DNA of 5,847 bases from a virus, in IMG/VR virus record IMGVR_UViG_3300045988_004982, positions 1 to 5,847 of that record. One strand, written 5' to 3'. Each line of letters begins with the position of its first letter. Position 1 is the first letter of the stretch. The notes beneath the pieces were generated by a model that was given only the letters and a program-made list of their open reading frames with translations, was not told where the DNA came from and did not search any database. Position numbers and translations under genes: made by a program. Of this stretch, positions 1-5,847 are shown piece by piece.

Positions 1-55
1 AAAAAGCCAAAGAAGCAGTAGAAAAGACTGGTAAAGCAGCCAAAGAAGGTGCTGA
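1..55. repeat. Terminal direct overlap, copy 1, identical to 5793..5847 (circular-contig redundancy)
   Basis: The 55-nt string aaaaagccaaagaagcagtagaaaagactggtaaagcagccaaagaaggtgctga occurs at both window ends. Confidence 0.97.
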
Positions 56-146
56 AAAAATAACCGAAGATATTATCAACAGGACAGCAAGAAGAAGCAA
101 ACTAATAGATGGATTCAAATCTGGAAAACCATACACAGGAGACTAA
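1..146 (+). CDS. C-terminal part of the DNA pilot / minor capsid protein VP2, continuing from 5066..5792 across the circular junction
   Basis: Codons are in phase with position 3. The reading ...KAKEAVEKTGKAAKEGAEKITEDIINRTARRSKLIDGFKSGKPYTGD ends at TAA 144..146. It is in frame with the ORF that runs off the 3' end of the window once the 55-nt overlap is collapsed. Total length is 873 nt, 290 aa. Confidence 0.85.
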   Translation, partial: KAKEAVEKTGKAAKEGAEKITEDIINRTARRSKLIDGFKSGKPYTGD

Positions 147-152
147 GAAAGG

Positions 153-184
153 AAGGGGGGGATGACAAAACATCCCCCCTTTTT
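153..184 (+). terminator. Rho-independent terminator after VP2
   Basis: A 9-bp GC-rich stem pairs GGGGGGATG (156..164) with CATCCCCCC (171..179) around the 6-nt loop ACAAAA. The stem can extend through G155:T180 and AA153-154:TT181-182. It is followed by a run of 5 T (180..184) and lies 7 nt after the VP2 stop. Confidence 0.8.
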
Positions 185-223
185 GGTAACAATAATCCAA
201 AAAATAGAGAATGTGGAAAACTT

Positions 224-392
224 GAGTTTTCAACACTTTCAACAGGTTTTCAACAACAAGTTGCACAAAGAAATTCGTCATTATGACGAACATTCAACAA
301 TTCAACAAGTTTTCAACAAAACTTTCAACAGTCAAAAAGGCAATAAATAAACGTAGAAACGTTAAAAAAACGAGTTTTCAACACTTTCAACA
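224..392 (+). repeat. Iteron-like array of nine same-orientation TTCAACA heptamers, including an exact 21-nt direct repeat
   Basis: TTCAACA occurs at 229, 238, 249, 293, 301, 312, 324, 377 and 386. The 21-mer gagttttcaacactttcaaca occurs at 224..244 and again at 372..392. Extended forms are GTTTTCAACA (x4) and ACTTTCAACA (x3). Spacing within clusters is 8 to 12 nt. Confidence 0.85.
274..290. promoter_or_regulatory. 17-nt palindrome TTCGTCAT-T-ATGACGAA, a candidate operator or hairpin between iteron clusters
   Basis: The arms 274..281 and 283..290 are exact reverse complements. The element sits between the first cluster (229..255) and the second cluster (293..330). Confidence 0.5.
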
Positions 393-411
393 CTACTACT
401 ACTACTACTAC
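392..411. repeat. Trinucleotide microsatellite (TAC)6
   Basis: Six consecutive TAC units run from 394..411 (equivalently six ACT units from 392..409), directly abutting the last TTCAACA copy. Confidence 0.9.
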
Positions 412-444
412 AACAAGTTAATATATAAAGAAAGCGAGGTGTCA

Positions 445-479
445 ACCGGCACAAGATAGACAAGGAAGCTTGTGCCGGT
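445..479 (+). promoter_or_regulatory. Perfect 11-bp stem-loop ending 7 nt before the rep start codon
   Basis: ACCGGCACAAG (445..455) pairs with CTTGTGCCGGT (469..479). The 13-nt loop ATAGACAAGGAAG carries an SD-like AAGGAAG. No T-tract follows, so it is not a classical terminator. Confidence 0.6.
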
Positions 480-486
480 AACAAAA

Positions 487-1476
487 ATGCCATGTACAAA
501 ACCATTAGTATTTCAGATGGACACGAAAAAGCCACGGCTATGGGGAAGTCTGGAAAACCTATCAAAGCAAGGACTTCAAGCGGACATCATGGACGGAATC
601 AAAAAAGGAAAATTCGCATTGTTACCATGCGGTAAGTGTGAATACTGTCGGAAACAGATGGCTGACCAATGGGCAACCAGAATAGAACTGGAAGCCAAAG
701 AATGGGACGATGTGATTTTTCTAACACTAACTTATGATGATGAGCACATACCTTATGGTGAAATCATCAAAGGTTACAGAAGCATTCAGAGTCAGACAGT
801 AAGCAAGCGAGACGTGCAGCTATTTATAAAGCGGCTACGAAAAGCATACAAAAAGCCAATAAAATACTTTCTAGCAGCTGAATATGGTGACAGAACAAAA
901 AGACCACACTATCACGCAATAGTATTTGGACTGAAACCACCGGATGCACAATGGTATAAAAACCAAAAGGGCAACAGCTATTTCAAAAGCGAGTGGTTAC
1001 AAAAAATCTGGGGCAAAGGCATGATAGACTTTTCACCAGCACAACCGGGGAGCTTTGCGTACGTGGCACAATACGTCAACAAAAAAGCCATAGGTGCAGA
1101 GCAAGCGGCAAAATACTGGATGGAAGGCAGAGAACCAGAGTTCCGAATCATGTCGAAAGGCATCGGCGAAAAGTATCTGAACGAACACAAAGATGAAATC
1201 TTGAAGACAGATAGCATCATATGCGCAGGAGGACGCGAGAAAAGGCCTCCACGCTATTTTGATAAGATACTTGATAAGGATACCAGCCAAGACACTGAAA
1301 GCTATTTTAAGGCACATTCTGACGAGCTGAGAGAGGTTAGAGCCAGACGCAGACGCAGTGCAATACAAAGTTTGGTCAATCTCGAACAGAACACGAGCGT
1401 GGATTACGAAACTTACCTTAACATTCAGAAAGAAAAAGACAAGCTAAAGCAAAAGTGGCGAGAACCGAAAGCATGA
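487..1476 (+). CDS. Replication initiation protein (Microviridae VP4 / phiX174 gpA-like HUH endonuclease)
   Basis: Rolling-circle Rep motifs are present: FLTLTY (motif 1), HYHAIVF (HUH, H codons at 907..909 and 913..915) and YVAQYVNKK (double catalytic Tyr at 1060..1062 and 1072..1074, compare phiX174 gpA YVAKYVNKK). There is also a CGKCEYCR cysteine motif. The start was moved from the track's GTG 472 to ATG 487, giving an MPCTKPL N-terminus typical of the family. Confidence 0.95.
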   Translation: MPCTKPLVFQMDTKKPRLWGSLENLSKQGLQADIMDGIKKGKFALLPCGKCEYCRKQMADQWATRIELEAKEWDDVIFLTLTYDDEHIPYGEIIKGYRSIQSQTVSKRDVQLFIKRLRKAYKKPIKYFLAAEYGDRTKRPHYHAIVFGLKPPDAQWYKNQKGNSYFKSEWLQKIWGKGMIDFSPAQPGSFAYVAQYVNKKAIGAEQAAKYWMEGREPEFRIMSKGIGEKYLNEHKDEILKTDSIICAGGREKRPPRYFDKILDKDTSQDTESYFKAHSDELREVRARRRRSAIQSLVNLEQNTSVDYETYLNIQKEKDKLKQKWREPKA

Positions 1477-1613
1477 CGCGCACAGCGCTAACAATGAATG
1501 GATTAGCCGAGTTCCGCATACGCTCCACACGGCAAGGCGCTAAAGCGCCATTCAAAACAAAGGAGCAAAACCGAGTTACTAATATATCAATTAAAATTTC
1601 AAAAAAAACTTGA
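1473..1613 (+). CDS. Candidate 46-aa basic ORF, start overlapping the rep stop (ATGA)
   Basis: ATG 1473 overlaps the rep TGA 1474..1476. The translation is MTRTALTMNGLAEFRIRSTRQGAKAPFKTKEQNRVTNISIKISKKT. There is no clear SD and no recognisable family, and its 3' end runs into the -35 box of the downstream promoter. It may be noncoding. Confidence 0.2.
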   Translation: MTRTALTMNGLAEFRIRSTRQGAKAPFKTKEQNRVTNISIKISKKT

Positions 1614-1638
1614 CTTTTTTTAAAAAAAATGATAAAAT
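1610..1638 (+). promoter_or_regulatory. Sigma70/SigA-type promoter with extended -10
   Basis: The -35 box is TTGACT (1610..1615), followed by a 17-nt A/T-only spacer. TG at 1630..1631 gives an extended -10, and the -10 box is TAAAAT (1633..1638). It lies 28 nt upstream of the ORF61 start, which has the SD GGAAGG. Confidence 0.7.
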
Positions 1639-1665
1639 ATAATTACAGAAAGGAAGGCGAAAACC

Positions 1666-1851
1666 ATGACGCACGTATATGAAATCCGAAAGCTAGAAAA
1701 AAACGGAAAAGTGACCACCATCCGAATGGTCACAGCAGAACCAAAAGCGGCAAAGAAAGCGTTCAAAGAATACGCAGAAGCAAATCCGGGAATTTACTCT
1801 TTATACCAAGTCCGCAAAGTAGGAGCATGCTTCACAGAAAGAGAGGATTGA
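1666..1851 (+). CDS. Hypothetical 61-aa protein, first gene of the accessory cassette
   Basis: An SD (AAAGGAAGG, 1650..1658) precedes ATG 1666. The stop at 1849..1851 lies 5 nt before the peptidase start. There is no TM segment and I recognise no family. Confidence 0.7.
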   Translation: MTHVYEIRKLEKNGKVTTIRMVTAEPKAAKKAFKEYAEANPGIYSLYQVRKVGACFTERED

Positions 1852-1856
1852 CAAAG

Positions 1857-2249
1857 ATGCTTAAATGCTATATCATGGACACAGACGGAAACATACAACT
1901 TACAAGACACTTCAAAGTAAAAGAATTTGCATGCAAAGACGGCAGTCAAGTAGTATTCATAGACGACCACTTATATACCGTTCTAGACATCCTCAGAAAT
2001 AAACTAGGAAAACCGGTAATCATCACCAGCGGATACAGAACACCAGAATGGAACAAAAAATGCGGTGGGGCAAAATACAGCTATCATATGCGCGGTATGG
2101 CGGCAGATATCCGGGTCAATGGTATAAGCGCAAAAGAGCTTGCCAACAAACTGAATGAAATCGTCCCGGATGAATGCGGCATTATCGTATACAACACTTG
2201 GGTGCACTTTGATGTGCGAACCGGGAAAAAATACAGAAAGGGGGTGTAA
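1857..2249 (+). CDS. Zinc D,D- or L,D-peptidase of the M15 / LAS type (Peptidase_M15A-like), putative peptidoglycan hydrolase
   Basis: The signature reads F-x-x-x-EF-x-C ... SGYRTPEWNKKCGGAKYSYHMRGMAADI ... WVHFD, which matches the SGYR-x4-N-x3-GG-x3-S-x-H-x2-G-x-A-x-D plus H-x-D pattern of the M15A family. Putative Zn ligands are the H codon 2085..2087, D 2106..2108 and H 2205..2207. ATG 1857 (SD GAGAGGA 1841..1847, 9-nt spacing) is preferred over the track's ATG 1827, whose AGGAG is only 1 nt away. Confidence 0.85.
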   Translation: MLKCYIMDTDGNIQLTRHFKVKEFACKDGSQVVFIDDHLYTVLDILRNKLGKPVIITSGYRTPEWNKKCGGAKYSYHMRGMAADIRVNGISAKELANKLNEIVPDECGIIVYNTWVHFDVRTGKKYRKGV

Positions 2250-2670: not shown

Positions 2671-2925
2671 ATGAAAATGACGTTCTATTGTTTCAAAGAC
2701 AGCGTAACCAACGGATACAGCAATCCGTTCTTACAGCTCAACAGAGCACAGGCAATCCGAACGGCACGATGGAAAGCCAACGAAAGCAAGGTAAACGAAA
2801 TCGAAGACATCAGCCTAGTTGAACTGGGCGAATTCGACACCGAAACGGGCGAAATGTACGGCGCAGACCCGAAACAGCTGTGCAGCCTGACAGACCTCAA
2901 GGAGAAATTTGATGTTAAGTCCTGA
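2671..2925 (+). CDS. VP5-like nonstructural protein (gokushovirus ORF5 family, protein C analogue)
   Basis: SD GGAG (2660..2663) lies 7 nt upstream. The N-terminal F-x-D-x-x-x-x-x-Y-x-x-PF, the A-x-R motif and the LVELGEFDTETGEM motif resemble the conserved pattern I recall for gokushovirus VP5. It overlaps the next gene by 14 nt. Confidence 0.6.
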   Translation: MKMTFYCFKDSVTNGYSNPFLQLNRAQAIRTARWKANESKVNEIEDISLVELGEFDTETGEMYGADPKQLCSLTDLKEKFDVKS

Positions 2926-3337
2926 CGTAATGGTGCGCTACTACGGCATGCCAACTGAAAGAGTAGCAAACAATCCGGGCAACAAGACCGCGCCAACATG
3001 GAAAGCGGTTAAGCGGCCAAACGGCACTACCGACTACATCCAGCAGCCGGATGAAGACACATACGAAAAAATCCAGCGAGCCGGCGAGGGCTACGACCTT
3101 GCAAGCGCAATCGCACGGCTGGAAGCGGGAGACGCCAGCATCAAGGCAAAGAGCATGGTATACACCGAAGGAACTGACCTTGAAAATCTGCCGAAGGATA
3201 TCATGACGATGCACGAAAAGGCCGAAGCAGCAGCCGAAACAATGGAACAGCTGAAACAGATGCAGCAGACCGAACAGCCGAAGCCGGCAGAGGAAAAAAA
3301 CAAAGAAGAGGTGAAGGAAAACGAACCGAAACAGTGA
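2912..3337 (+). CDS. Putative internal scaffolding protein (VP3-like), 141 aa
   Basis: SD AAGGAG (2899..2904) lies 7 nt before ATG 2912 (the track used TTG 2909). The gene sits immediately upstream of the capsid gene, has a size typical of VP3 and carries a strongly acidic E/K/Q-rich C-terminal tail. The assignment is positional and compositional, not motif-based. Confidence 0.5.
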   Translation: MLSPDVMVRYYGMPTERVANNPGNKTAPTWKAVKRPNGTTDYIQQPDEDTYEKIQRAGEGYDLASAIARLEAGDASIKAKSMVYTEGTDLENLPKDIMTMHEKAEAAAETMEQLKQMQQTEQPKPAEEKNKEEVKENEPKQ

Positions 3338-3362: not shown

Positions 3363-5027
3363 ATGGAACGACCGCGAAGCAAATTTGACAGAAGCCACCA
3401 GCTTCTGACAACCATCAACGAAGGTGACCTAGTGCCCATCTACTGTGATGAGGTACTTCCGGGCGATACCGCAAAGGTACATCTTAACGGTCTTATCCGT
3501 ATGAGTACGCCTATCTATCCTGTCATGGATAACTGCTATATGGACACATATTTCTTCTTTGTTCCCTGTCGTCTGCTCTGGGAACACTGGGAAAATATGT
3601 TCGGCGAAAACGATACAAACTACTGGGCAGAAAAAACCGAATACAGCACGCCGACTTGCACAATCGGCGGCACCAGCGGTCTGAGTAATGGCAGCCTCGG
3701 AGACTACTTTGGACTGCCGACCGGAATCAAGAACAAAATCGAAGTCAACGCACTTCCGGCAAGAGCATACGCAATGATTTACAACGAGTGGTTCCGAGAT
3801 GAAAACATCGAAGCACCGTTGATGTTAGGCTATAAAAAAACGGATAACGGCGACGGACACACAAACCCGGACACAATCAAAACCCAGGCAGTAAATGAGC
3901 CAGCACAAACCACATCCACAAACGAAGCGGCACTATACAGCAGGAAGCCAGCCAAGGCAGGAAAATTCCACGACTACTTCACATCCTGTTTGCCAAGTCC
4001 GATGAAATCTGAACCTGTGGAAATCAACCTAACAGGTAATGCACCACTTAAACTGGGAAAAAGCGATGGCACAACGGTTCCAAGCCTGGAAACGGGCAAC
4101 GGTCCGGAAATGGTTTTAAGCGCAACAGGAGGAGCCGCAAATAAAACGGGATCGTTGGCATACGCAGGAAGCCCAAACAATAAAATAATGCAATTCACGG
4201 GAACAATGGGCAACACAATCGGCGCAGGAGGTTATTTGTTCGCAGACCTGAGCGGGGTCAACGCAATCAGCATTCAGGATTTACGCATGAGCATTGCACT
4301 GCAGCACATCTTTGAAGCAGATGCACGAAACGGCACGCGCTATCGCGAGTTCCTTTCCGGCACGTGGGGCGTGACAAGTCCGGACAGCCGTCTGCAGATT
4401 CCTGAATACATCGGCGGACAGCGCATTGCAATCAATGTAAATCAAGTTGTGCAGACGAGCCAGACGGACACGCAAACCGGGCAGGCACTGGGCAATACCG
4501 CAGCATACAGTCTGACCACGTGCAGCAAGCAAATGGTGGACTACGCAGCAACCGAATACGGCTTTATCATCGGTCTGGCGGTGGTACGAGTGGAGCACAG
4601 CTACCAGCAAGGGCTTGCAACCAAGTGGACACGTGGCGGACGGTTCACCTACTACGACCCGCGTCTAGCAGCACTGGGCGAACAGCCAGTGTACAACCGT
4701 GAAATCTATGCACAGGGCACGACAGAAGATAACGAAATCTTCGGCTACCAAGAGGCGTGGGCGGATTACCGCTACAAGCCTTCTTACGTAACCGGCGAAA
4801 TGCGTTCTAACTACCAAACGAGCTTAGACGCATGGCACTATGCGGACGATTATAACGCGCTCCCGCGTCTCTCGGCAGAGTGGATCCAAGAAGGAACACA
4901 GAACATTGACCGAACGATTGCAGTAACAAGCGCAAAAAGCCACCAATTCTTGTGTGACTTCTACTTCACAGAAGATTGGTATCGCGAAATGCCTATCTAC
5001 AGCATCCCGGGCATCGAAAGAATCTAA
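3363..5027 (+). CDS. Major capsid protein VP1 (Microviridae F-protein family), 554 aa
   Basis: The N-terminal FDRSHQLLTTINEGDLVPIYCDEVLPGDT...YFFFVPCRLLWE matches the hallmark FD-x-SH ... G-x-L-x-P ... EVLPGDT ... FFVP-x-RLLW pattern of gokushovirus capsid proteins. The length is typical. ATG 3363 is the first possible start after the in-frame stop at 3312. Confidence 0.97.
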   Translation: MERPRSKFDRSHQLLTTINEGDLVPIYCDEVLPGDTAKVHLNGLIRMSTPIYPVMDNCYMDTYFFFVPCRLLWEHWENMFGENDTNYWAEKTEYSTPTCTIGGTSGLSNGSLGDYFGLPTGIKNKIEVNALPARAYAMIYNEWFRDENIEAPLMLGYKKTDNGDGHTNPDTIKTQAVNEPAQTTSTNEAALYSRKPAKAGKFHDYFTSCLPSPMKSEPVEINLTGNAPLKLGKSDGTTVPSLETGNGPEMVLSATGGAANKTGSLAYAGSPNNKIMQFTGTMGNTIGAGGYLFADLSGVNAISIQDLRMSIALQHIFEADARNGTRYREFLSGTWGVTSPDSRLQIPEYIGGQRIAINVNQVVQTSQTDTQTGQALGNTAAYSLTTCSKQMVDYAATEYGFIIGLAVVRVEHSYQQGLATKWTRGGRFTYYDPRLAALGEQPVYNREIYAQGTTEDNEIFGYQEAWADYRYKPSYVTGEMRSNYQTSLDAWHYADDYNALPRLSAEWIQEGTQNIDRTIAVTSAKSHQFLCDFYFTEDWYREMPIYSIPGIERI

Positions 5028-5065: not shown

Positions 5066-5847
5066 ATGGAGACGTTATTAAGCTTTATGCCATACCTCAT
5101 GCAAGGGCTGAGCATGTTAACAGGCATCATAACGAACAGCAACCAAAGCAGCGCCAAGAACAGCCAAGGGTCAGGCAGCGAGACCACAACCGGCAGCGAG
5201 ACCACAACCGGCAGCGTGACAGGGCCGCAGCAAATCGGAGCAACACAAATTAGCACGCCAACAGGCGTCACAATGTTCGGAAATCAGAGCAGTGTAAACA
5301 CCGCAAACGCACTGCAAATGATGAGCGGACTACTGAGCAACATCGCAAATGCTGGAAGCCAAGCAAGCGCAAAGAAGTACAACAGCGCAGAAGCAGCAGC
5401 AGAACGAGCATTTCAAAAGGAAATGCGCGGAACAGCCTATCAGGATACCGTAAAGGACATGATAGCAGCGGGCATCAATCCTATTCTAGCAGCAACCAAC
5501 GGCGCAACAAGCGCACCATCGGGAGCATCTGCAAGCATTGGAAGCCAACGTTATAACCAGCAGAGCGCACAGGCTGCAAGCGTATCCGCGATGTACGAAT
5601 ACGGCAACAACACGGCAGAGCTGGCAGACAAATACTTACAGCTAGCAAAACAGGCCACCAGCGCAAAACAGCTTAAGAGTGCGAAAAGCTGGGAACAGGC
5701 AGCGAGCGAGCTGGCAACCTCAAGCGCAAAACAGGCGCAACAATACACCTATACAGCTAACAAGTTAGGTGCAGGCCTTGCGGGAGCAGGAAAAAAAGCC
5801 AAAGAAGCAGTAGAAAAGACTGGTAAAGCAGCCAAAGAAGGTGCTGA
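5066..5847 (+). CDS. DNA pilot / minor capsid protein VP2, N-terminal 260 codons (continues at 1..146 after removing the overlap)
   Basis: Frame 2 is open from ATG 5066 to the window end. The N-terminus is hydrophobic (LLSFMPYLMQGLSMLTGII). The block ERAFQKEMRGTAYQDTVKDMIAAGINPILA matches the conserved NTAYQR-x-x-x-DM-x-x-AGLNP-x-LA core I recall for gokushovirus VP2. The central part is rich in A, Q and S. The start could instead be the in-frame ATG 5087. Confidence 0.85.
   Translation, partial: METLLSFMPYLMQGLSMLTGIITNSNQSSAKNSQGSGSETTTGSETTTGSVTGPQQIGATQISTPTGVTMFGNQSSVNTANALQMMSGLLSNIANAGSQASAKKYNSAEAAAERAFQKEMRGTAYQDTVKDMIAAGINPILAATNGATSAPSGASASIGSQRYNQQSAQAASVSAMYEYGNNTAELADKYLQLAKQATSAKQLKSAKSWEQAASELATSSAKQAQQYTYTANKLGAGLAGAGKKAKEAVEKTGKAAKEGA
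5174..5216 (+). repeat. 18-nt tandem repeat (2.4 copies) inside VP2
   Basis: ggcagcgagaccacaacc occurs at 5174..5191 and 5192..5209, then ggcagcg at 5210..5216. It encodes GSETTT-GSETTT-GS. Confidence 0.95.
5793..5847. repeat. Terminal direct overlap, copy 2, identical to 1..55
   Basis: Exact 55-nt match to the window start. Confidence 0.97.

Follow-up and report, generated by a model that had tools for sequence, protein, structure and literature searches.

The basal unwinding system (BUS) of bacterial chromosomal origins is built from one or two tandem DnaA boxes, a GC-rich spacer of about 4 base pairs (bp), at least three DnaA-trios (3'-GAT-5') and an unwinding region (PMC8287927, PMC6669920). 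Described forms are Bacillus subtilis incC (boxes 6 and 7, trios and DNA unwinding element (DUE)) and those of Staphylococcus aureus, Listeria monocytogenes and Clostridioides difficile. The subject here is a noncoding cassette of about 210 nucleotides (nt), with nine copies of the heptamer TTCAACA, in a gokushovirus genome, IMG/VR record IMGVR_UViG_3300045988_004982. The whole stretch analysed (5847 nt, termed the window) is a complete circular genome (5.79 kb), in which the last 55 nt duplicate the first 55 nt; this corrects an initial annotation that had been made from the sequence without database searches. Judged from its sequence and conservation, the cassette appears, with slightly more than even confidence, to be a phage-borne copy of a bacterial oriC BUS, i.e. 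an unwinding module that would depend on the host DnaA and serve phage replication.

DnaA boxes on phages and plasmids are already known, as is the BUS itself. Plasmid DnaA boxes assist a plasmid-encoded initiator that has its own iterons, and in this they differ from the cassette. T5-like phages have eight paired DnaA and DnaA* boxes in their injection-stop region, with TTATCAACA among the listed variants. These arrays resemble the cassette in that host-initiator boxes are kept in noncoding phage DNA while coding sequences diverge, and in their short, fixed pair spacers. Unlike the cassette, the T5 boxes have been proposed to act in DNA injection, and the account of them that was consulted describes no trio run. 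The phage phiX174 encodes an HUH Rep, as do gokushoviruses, but its origin (a 30-nt site in gene A) is without box arrays, trios or DnaA dependence. A literature search yielded no paper that pairs Microviridae with DnaA boxes, and no such phage element appears in titles or abstracts that pair Microviridae with DnaA, or DnaA-trio with bacteriophage; to this extent the view of the initial annotation, that such an array is not a described feature of Microviridae, is borne out. As far as can be told, a BUS-type module carried as an exchangeable cassette by a rolling-circle single-stranded DNA (ssDNA) phage is new.

The heptamer array and its comparison with bacterial origins

TTCAACA starts at positions 229, 238, 249, 293, 301, 312, 324, 377 and 386 of the window. 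All nine copies are on the + strand, spanning 229..392, and a computer count finds none elsewhere in the 5847 nt on either strand. Dinucleotide-preserving shuffles gave a mean of 1.12 copies and a maximum of 6, and 0 of 200 reached nine. The spacings inside the clusters are 9 and 11 nt (cluster 1), 8, 11 and 12 nt (cluster 2) and 9 nt (cluster 3). Positions 224..244 and 372..392 are one and the same 21-mer, GAGTTTTCAACACTTTCAACA. The initial annotation had listed nine same-strand copies in three clusters (3 + 4 + 2) at 8–12 nt spacing, had pointed to the exact 21-nt direct repeat, and by eye had seen no copy elsewhere; exact counting agrees with it on each of these. Two further members of the array, an inverted perfect box next to cluster 1 and a degenerate box after it, had been overlooked, as had two putative functional parts, the (CTA)6 run and the AT-rich stretch (Table 1).

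Box sequences were compared in an alignment of 35 non-redundant cassettes, which provides a matrix of 304 aligned 9-mers. The repeat unit is nTTTC(A/C)ACA, with frequencies of T2.89, T3.94, T4.98, C5.87, A7.99, C8.92 and A9.88, and at position 6 of A.79, C.19 and G 0. This matches the DnaA box TTWTNCACA except at position 6, where the sole alternative base is the C of the DnaA consensus. Canonical TTTTCCACA or TTATCCACA stands in for TTTTCAACA at homologous positions, e.g. the last box of cluster 1 is TTTTCCACA in 11/35 cassettes and the third box of cluster 2 is TTATCCACA in 4/35. The trio-proximal box of cluster 3 is TTTTCCAC(A/T/C) in at least 15/35 cassettes, and the degenerate box of the window corresponds in most relatives to TGTTGCACA, with one mismatch to TTWTNCACA. 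At least one perfect TTWTNCACA is held by 23/35 cassettes, at no constant position. The heptamers are best explained as the putative cores of variant DnaA boxes of this form. A precedent for A at position 6 is TT(T/A)TCAACA, the proposed DnaA box of mollicutes (PMC3322544). In addition, TTATCNACA is the consensus box of Thermoanaerobacter tengcongensis, with demonstrated binding of DnaA to that origin (PMC1888806), and GAATCAACA is the trio-proximal box of the Enterococcus faecalis BUS scaffold (Pelliciari 2021, Table S3). The variant box TTATCAACA of T5-like phages is a further precedent.

The signal resides in the heptamer and its clustering, and not in a relaxed DnaA-box count: boxes with one mismatch or less to TTWTNCACA are not enriched genome-wide (13 against 10.7 expected). 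Among 219 box spacings the pitch is 8 bp in 54, 9 bp in 67, 10 bp in 3, 11 bp in 60 and 12 bp in 35. A pitch of 8 bp is also that of the BUS oligos from B. subtilis and S. aureus, one of 12 bp occurs in T. tengcongensis and T5, and 11 bp is the pitch of E. coli arrays.

An open reading frame (ORF) at 162..350 holds seven of the heptamers, spread over all three phases, and two lie outside it. ORFs of 58–63 amino acids (aa) overlap the cassette region, but a frame is open across the cassette in only 6/35 cassettes on the sense strand and in 0/35 on the antisense strand. Since copies fall in all phases and outside the ORF, and since no frame is kept open in most relatives, conservation is at the level of DNA, as the initial annotation had argued. 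A protein-coding role was rejected on the same grounds, the overlapping ORFs being also without a Pfam match.

The published search rules for a BUS (PMC8287927) are a box with at most 2 mismatches, a second tandem box with at most 4, a spacer of at most 16 and at least three trios. The second box is optional, lies 0–3 bp away and has the same orientation, and the trios are of the form NAN, preferably 3'-GAT-5', on the strand complementary to TTATCCACA. A stretch answering to these rules is found at 375..410 of the window and in 0/300 shuffles. Its first box (TTTTCAACA, 375..383) has 2 mismatches to TTATCCACA; TTTTCCACA, frequent in relatives, has 1 mismatch to TTATCCACA and 0 to TTWTNCACA. The second box (CTTTCAACA, 384..392) follows with a gap of 0 bp and has 3 mismatches, and in clade B (the larger clade of relatives, with divergent VP4) the pair TTTTCAAC/TTTTCCAC has the 8-bp pitch of the B. 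subtilis and S. aureus oligos. The trios are the (CTA)6 at 393..410, after a spacer of 9 nt from the first box. In most relatives a GC-rich spacer (ACCC, GCC, CCT or CTC, i.e. 3–5 nt and C-rich) stands between box and trios. The 16 nt past CAACAAGT are 88% A+T in the window and 69–100% in 35/35 cassettes. CTA run length and box positions are fixed over all 35. A chromosomal origin lies by dnaA/dnaN; the cassette lies between VP2 and VP4 of a gokushovirus.

The polarity of the trios was checked in E. coli oriC (5,425 genomes at ≥95% identity, 3,745 at ≥99%), where the strand that reads TTATCCACA continues ...CTAATAAGAGATC. CTA repeats downstream of a box are thus the expected appearance of trios on the top strand. 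The trio sequence of C. difficile is CACCTACTACTATTACTACTA.

Four complete phage genomes were scanned on both strands, without gaps, with BUS scaffold oligos. The scaffold that has been used experimentally for B. subtilis is ACTTATCCACAAATCCACAGGCCC / TACTATTACTTCTACTA, that of S. aureus is ...TTATCCACCAATCCACAGCACC / TACTACTATTACTA, and that of L. monocytogenes is ...GCGCC / TATTACTATTACTA. For each of these three the best genome-wide match is cluster 3 with the CTA run, in 4/4 genomes, and it exceeds all shuffles. The register is that of the origins themselves: box 6 falls on box a, box 7 on box b, the GC cluster on CCCC, and trios on trios. With the B. subtilis oligo 26–31 of 41 positions are identical, as against a shuffle maximum of 24–25; an example of a matching site is ACTTTTCAACTTTTCCACTACCCCTACTACTACTTCTACAA in genome L222. 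The E. faecalis oligo gave no alignment to the cassette above shuffles.

The likeness to bacterial origins includes the same order and polarity of parts, tandem co-oriented boxes at 8–9-bp pitch, in most relatives a short C-rich spacer, CTA/TAC trinucleotides and AT-rich DNA; in B. subtilis incC, further co-oriented box clusters lie upstream, as they do in the cassette. There are also differences. The cassette is on a 5.8-kb ssDNA phage and not by dnaA/dnaN, A mostly replaces C at position 6 of its boxes, it has three regular clusters, and it is movable, with two positions and both orientations. Because boxes, (CTA)6 and AT-rich stretch together reproduce the grammar of DnaA box, DnaA-trio and DUE, a host initiator is indicated rather than a phage-encoded binder.

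The cassette and its hairpin neighbour in related gokushoviruses

Blastn searches with the noncoding region matched 36 GenBank gokushoviruses, most of which share only about positions 228..433, at 70–80% identity and with sharp edges. The closest GenBank relatives of the window genome as a whole are human-gut gokushoviruses (~87% identity). Scans of IMG/VR added dozens of cassette-bearing genomes; a three-copy pattern gave usable matches, whereas a loose two-copy pattern was swamped by unrelated repeats. Nucleotide identity of the cassette among gokushoviruses is 72–97%, and for the IMG/VR additions it is 72–85%, as against aa identities of 33–47% for VP4 and 39–56% for VP1. The array that the initial annotation had described from a single genome is thus conserved in the intergenic regions of relatives.

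The order of parts in the 35 cassettes is cluster 1 (3–4 boxes), GTTGCACAA, a variable spacer 1 (often with the palindrome TTCGTCA-N3-TGACGAA), cluster 2 (4 boxes), spacer 2 and the pair of cluster 3. Beyond the pair come 0–7 nt that are usually C-rich, a fixed-length CTACTACTAC..CTACAACAAGTT, and 11–16 nt of pure A/T. Majority-base conservation is 0.82–0.97 in the boxes, 0.90 in the trinucleotide run, 0.67–0.71 in the spacers and about 0.5 in the flanks. Cluster 2 is the best-conserved part (0.97), the heptamer columns of cluster 1 reach 0.93, and the GTTGCACAA block has a majority-base fraction of 0.78, with TTGCACA counted in both clades. The small hairpin that the initial annotation had noted between clusters 2 and 3 exists, but it is weak (Table 1), and in relatives it is a 4-bp ACGY-N4-RCGT dyad with a few compensatory changes. 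The inverted perfect box beside cluster 1 is confined, in the alignment, to the subclade of the window (window, L016, L045, L229, L035, L049 and L270); in ssDNA it may pair with 225..235 to give a weak hairpin (-5.6 kcal/mol, z = -1.65).

RNAalifold gave an empty consensus structure for the cassette on both strands. A structured RNA or ssDNA element was rejected, the only Rfam match being sub-threshold, an L20 leader (E = 0.67; 22 bits, where the gathering threshold is 58.7) that lies on the - strand at 142..229 and overlaps just the cassette edge. The lack of both a consensus single-strand structure and a conserved ORF fits a protein-binding element that acts as duplex.

The cassette is found in two layouts. 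Where VP4 is at least 80% identical to that of the window (layout 1), the cassette has the orientation of the genes and directly precedes VP4. In the larger clade with divergent VP4 (layout 2), it is inverted and directly downstream of VP4, ahead of the M15 peptidase gene. L017 (IMGVR_UViG_3300045988_015275, positions 1..2100) has a VP4 98% identical to that of the window, yet carries the cassette and layout of the other clade: its VP2-VP4 spacer is without a cassette, and the inverted cassette downstream of VP4 has no hairpin of its own there. Either L017 arose by natural recombination between the layouts, or its assembly is chimeric.

A hairpin with an 11-bp stem, preceded by GGTGTCA, is the neighbour of the cassette and not part of it (Table 1). 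Folded as ssDNA it gives -14 kcal/mol (z = -7.3). It is always on the gene strand, upstream of the VP4 ATG in the clade of the window and right after the VP4 stop in the divergent clade (L112, L216, L142, L259 and others). Its 24 distinct versions differ in the stem by compensatory changes, and all of them pair, e.g. GGCACAAG/CTTGTGCC, GGCGCAAG/CTTGCGCC, AGCCCAGTACC/GGTACTGGGCT and GGCCTAATC/GATTAGGCC, and the loop is conserved as ...CAAG(T/G)AAG. Of 85 distinct cassettes, 76 have GGTGTCA on the AT-rich side and none has it on the box side. The other 9/85 have no exact GGTGTCA within range; L112, L270 and L275 show one-base variants (AGTGTCA, TGTCA), and in L017 the hairpin is elsewhere. Since GGTGTCA is always on the AT-rich side where it is found, the cassette is free in orientation relative to the genes but not relative to the hairpin.

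The hairpin is a candidate for a strand-specific origin (Rep nick site) or for a regulatory hairpin (translational or termination), and it is the best candidate for the Rep origin. The loop and a CAACAAGTTAATA motif loosely recall, in what we take to be a weak resemblance, the phiX174 origin (CAACTTG/ATA...ATAGAC). The nick-site similarity itself, CAACTTG/ATA against CAACAAG/TTA, was too weak and was not used. In many relatives, e.g. L222, L287, L112, L259 and L002 (2980..3015), alternating GCGCGTGCGCGC runs (purine-pyrimidine, prone to Z-DNA or hairpins) separate the GGTGTCA hairpin from the AT-rich end; none is present in the window.

Searches for a source outside these phages gave no copy. 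Box cluster, CTA run and GGTGTCA hairpin are all missing from SpV4, phiMH2K and Chp2, cultured gokushoviruses with a homologous VP4; blastn against PLSDB gave no plasmid match; and a scan of 185,579 species genomes with the 20-base conserved pattern ACTACTACNNCTACAACAAGTT revealed no chromosomal copy. The six matches in that scan were five coincidences in coding sequences and a phage contig, L294. The cassette is best explained as an exchangeable accessory module of gut gokushoviruses and not as a set of VP4-specific iterons. It is a conserved, exchangeable duplex-type element with oriC/BUS grammar, independent of VP4 lineage and in fixed geometry to a strand-specific hairpin.

Table 1. Cassette parts, neighbouring hairpin and genes of the window
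Feature	Position	Strand	Remarks
Whole conserved noncoding cassette	224..433	+	about 210 nt; three box clusters, trinucleotide run, AT-rich end
Inverted perfect DnaA box TTTTCCACA	212..220	-	adjoins cluster 1; sole zero-mismatch TTWTNCACA in the genome
Cluster 1, three co-oriented boxes TTTTCAACA, CTTTCAACA, TTTTCAACA	227..255	+	four boxes in most relatives
Degenerate extra box AGTTGCACA	258..266	+	11 nt past the previous box
Palindrome TTCGTCA-TTA-TGACGAA in spacer 1	274..290		perfect inverted pair of TGNCGAA (Spo0A 0A-box-type) motifs
Cluster 2, four co-oriented boxes CATTCAACA, AATTCAACA, TTTTCAACA, CTTTCAACA	291..330	+	
Dyad AACGT-AGAA-ACGTT in spacer 2	350..363		5-bp stem, -3.8 kcal/mol, z = -2.6; weak
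Cluster 3, tandem box pair TTTTCAACA, CTTTCAACA	375..392	+	directly upstream of CTA run; corresponds to B. subtilis DnaA boxes 6 and 7
(CTA)6 then CAACAAGTT, candidate DnaA-trio run	393..419	+	3'-GAT-5' on complementary strand; Tandem Repeats Finder (TRF) period 3, 6.7 copies
AT-rich stretch TTAATATATAAAGAAAG, candidate DUE	418..434		
Clade-B counterpart of the 373..434 stretch			ACTTTTCAACTTTTCCACTACCCC / TACTACTACTTCTACAACAAG
GGTGTCA hairpin, 11-bp stem, loop ATAGACAAGGAAG	438..479	+	7 nt ahead of VP4 ATG; neighbour of the cassette
VP4 replication initiator (HUH Rep)	487..1476	+	Pfam PF23343, E = 1e-20; PHROG 942 replication initiation protein, E = 9e-108
M15 peptidase	1827..2249	+	
VP5	2671..2925	+	
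VP3-like scaffold protein	2909..3337	+	
VP1	3363..5027	+	
VP2	5066 through junction to 146	+	

Alternative explanations and the proposed role

Direct repeats at about the helical pitch, by a rep gene and a stem-loop, are also characteristic of the iterons of plasmids and of circular Rep-encoding single-stranded (CRESS) DNA viruses, and the initial annotation had read the array in this way. The repeats would then be bound by the phage Rep (VP4), positioning it at the plus-strand origin or autoregulating rep. In favour of this, the cassette is found only in intergenic regions that border VP4, on one side or the other, and the hairpin towards which its AT-rich end points is the best candidate for a Rep nick site. 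What stands of this idea is a set of non-random, co-oriented sites of a protein-binding type at about helical pitch next to rep; binding by VP4 itself is improbable. Iterons co-vary with their Rep, whereas the same heptamer is kept with VP4 proteins only 33–47% identical (91 TTCAACA in clade A; 165 TTCAACA and 20 TTCCACA in clade B; no co-variation) and in two layouts, and the cassette moves independently of VP4. L017, in which an A-type VP4 goes with a cassette that is of B type also in position and orientation, amounts to a natural swap. SpV4, phiMH2K and Chp2 have a homologous VP4 without such an array, and the box variants that do occur are canonical DnaA boxes. Quite improbable, too, is a complementary-strand (minus) origin on the packaged single strand, with the CTA repeats as primase sites or a DnaA-box hairpin as entry point for a primosome. 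In its favour, C. difficile primase is stimulated at 5'-d(CTA), a fold at 207..240 makes a DnaA box double-stranded in the subclade of the window, and exchangeable, sharp-edged noncoding cassettes are typical of the single-strand origins (sso) of rolling-circle plasmids. But the orientation of the cassette relative to the genes flips in the larger clade, so that the packaged coding-sense strand would there carry TAG and TGTTGAA; RNAalifold found no consensus pairs on either strand; and the 207..240 hairpin is weak (z = -1.65) and limited to one subclade. A transcriptional control region (VP4 promoter or operator), a small gene or RNA, or functionless slippage repeats are very unlikely. The position directly upstream of VP4 in the window genome and the overlapping ORFs of 58–63 aa would suit some of these, and DnaA can also act as a transcription factor. 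Against them, promoter prediction gives no sigma-70-like site in 147..486, the two clades differ in cassette orientation, and there is no conserved ORF, Pfam match, above-threshold Rfam match or consensus structure; slippage is unlikely because CTA run length and box positions are fixed in 35 diverged cassettes.

A serious alternative or co-regulator, though of minor probability, is another host regulator, Spo0A. On the other strand the heptamer reads TGTtGAA, i.e. the 0A-box core TGTCGAA/TGNCGAA with C4 replaced. In a spore-forming Firmicute, Spo0A~P could coat such degenerate 0A boxes at the onset of sporulation and, as happens in phi29 and Nf, shut off replication or transcription of the phage, either alone or on top of a use by DnaA. 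The footprints of Spo0A on phage Nf cover two boxes, each exactly 5'-TGTtGAA-3' (PMC2731898), and host-regulator sites in phages of the phi29 family control replication and transcription. 0A boxes resemble DnaA boxes in their consensus and overlap with them in B. subtilis oriC, where Spo0A~P binds (PMC5295017). The cassette of the window has an inverted TGACGAA pair in spacer 1, at least one TGNCGAA is present in 19/35 cassettes, and strong Shine-Dalgarno sites, a sigma-70-type promoter and the Bacilli- or Clostridia-like BUS hint at a Firmicute host. The discriminating base speaks otherwise: the 0A consensus base (G in box orientation) is found in 0/304 boxes, as compared with 19% for the DnaA base C. 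Spo0A contacts the 0A box at G2, C4 and G5, and mutation of C4 lowers affinity about 10-fold (PMC3485338). The tandem pitch of the Nf type (3-bp spacer, 10 bp) accounts for 3/219 spacings, the usual pitch of the cassette being 8, 9, 11 or 12 bp. Spo0A also leaves unexplained the fixed-length CTA run, the GC spacer, the AT-rich end and the in-register match to BUS oligos; for the trio and DUE part, Spo0A sites offer no counterpart.

To return to a BUS that depends on host DnaA, several points weigh against it, the exact heptamer under the Nf footprints being one. The argument is one of conservation and grammar. Position 6 of the dominant box is A, and 12/35 cassettes are without a perfect TTWTNCACA. 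C at this position is important for E. coli DnaA, so most boxes would be of low affinity unless the host DnaA tolerates A6. The window lacks the GC-rich spacer, its trios beginning at the base right after the box. The comparison with BUS elements followed the idea, though the oligo scan was genome-wide and unbiased, and the BUS rules are permissive, a BUS being found in 85% of predicted origins. No bacterial oriC with exactly this module was found in the pattern scan of 185,579 species genomes. The evidence on orientation rests on essentially two evolutionary configurations. In L017 a whole VP4 gene separates cassette and hairpin, so their adjacency may not be required; alternatively that contig may be chimeric.

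If the cassette is a BUS, host DnaA-ATP would fill the box arrays on the double-stranded replicative form, oligomerise from the trio-proximal box pair onto the trios, and melt the adjacent AT-rich DNA. The opening could expose or extrude the hairpin for nicking by VP4, an HUH nuclease that needs a single-stranded substrate, or it could allow host helicase and primase to be loaded for replication of the replicative form. These two uses appear the likeliest because the AT-rich end faces the GGTGTCA hairpin, and either would make phage replication dependent on the initiation potential of the host. Titration of DnaA would be a third use, less likely since the trios and the AT-rich end are conserved.

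Genome setting, host and biological meaning

All genes of the window are on the + strand, and the region between VP2 and VP4 (147..486) is its sole sizeable noncoding region, as the initial annotation had stated. Its left border, directly 3' of the VP2 stop, is a G/C-rich hairpin followed by a T-run (153..182), likely an intrinsic terminator, which is kept in the cassette-free VP2-VP4 spacer of L017. The approximately 94 nt directly 3' of the VP4 stop (1476..1569) show 94.7% identity to the otherwise highly divergent genomes KX513868.1 and MG945514.1. This segment adjoins the box end of the cassette in the other (divergent-VP4) layout, contains a hairpin GGCGC-TAAA-GCGCC and overlaps a 52-aa GTG ORF (1455..1613) that has matches in 11/28 divergent genomes. 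The M15 peptidase has up to 89% aa identity in genomes whose VP1 and VP4 are only ~40% identical; thus the M15 gene appears to be exchanged horizontally among these phages, like the cassette. Aside from VP1, VP2 and VP4, the most widely shared ORF encodes a 38-aa basic VP8/J-like peptide (26/28 clade-B genomes). A co-occurring phage-encoded specific binder was considered and rejected, this peptide being the best-shared extra ORF. The N-terminal part of VP2 has an 18-nt tandem repeat (5174..5220, GGCAGCGAGACCACAACC, 2.6 copies, 96% matches) that encodes a repeated peptide.

An AGGAGG-type Shine-Dalgarno site precedes every gene of the window genome. A near-consensus sigma-70-type promoter is predicted at 1610..1638 (TTGACT-17-TAAAAT, extended -10 TG) and a second one at 1848..1876 (TTGACA-17-TATCAT). 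Shine-Dalgarno use, the sigma-70 promoter and the Bacilli- or Clostridia-like BUS together suggest a Firmicute host. Heavy Shine-Dalgarno use and a promoter of the TTGACT-17-TAAAAT type are atypical for Bacteroidota. A complete cassette-bearing gokushovirus genome (L294, CAVKUS010000079.1, 5739 nt) was binned with a 'Bacteroides sp. CAG:545' metagenome-assembled genome (MAG). Most likely this contig is free phage DNA that was binned along with the bacterial contigs; it is no evidence of integration and, as the one association with a MAG (a Bacteroidales bin), weak evidence for a host. Another contig, L033 (IMGVR_UViG_3300045988_004182, 10,711 nt), carries the VP4 and cassette of this phage at about twice the unit genome length, and may be a dimer or a concatemer assembly.

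Gokushoviruses rank with the most abundant human-gut phages and have almost no cultured hosts, and next to nothing is known of their replication beyond the phiX174/E. coli paradigm. The present analysis divides what has been an "intergenic region" into two elements, an orientation-free cassette, presumably for a host factor, and a strand-fixed GGTGTCA hairpin. If the cassette is what it appears to be, it would be, as far as the searched literature shows, the first BUS-type origin module outside a bacterial chromosome, and a rolling-circle ssDNA phage would depend on the chromosomal initiator of its host. The box variant and trio type, which resemble those of Bacilli and Clostridia, would also give a handle for host prediction.

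Through such a module, persistence in a carrier state or coupled to sporulation would also be plausible. In a bolder form of the idea, which is thought unlikely on the whole, gut gokushoviruses would carry a miniature, horizontally exchanged Firmicute origin with boxes tuned to differ by a single mismatch from the DnaA box and likewise from the Spo0A box. The replicative form would fire only at high DnaA-ATP, possibly as an oriC-type episome in a carrier state, and Spo0A~P would silence it at sporulation, so that a 'lytic' ssDNA phage might persist, or be trapped, in the spores of gut Clostridia.

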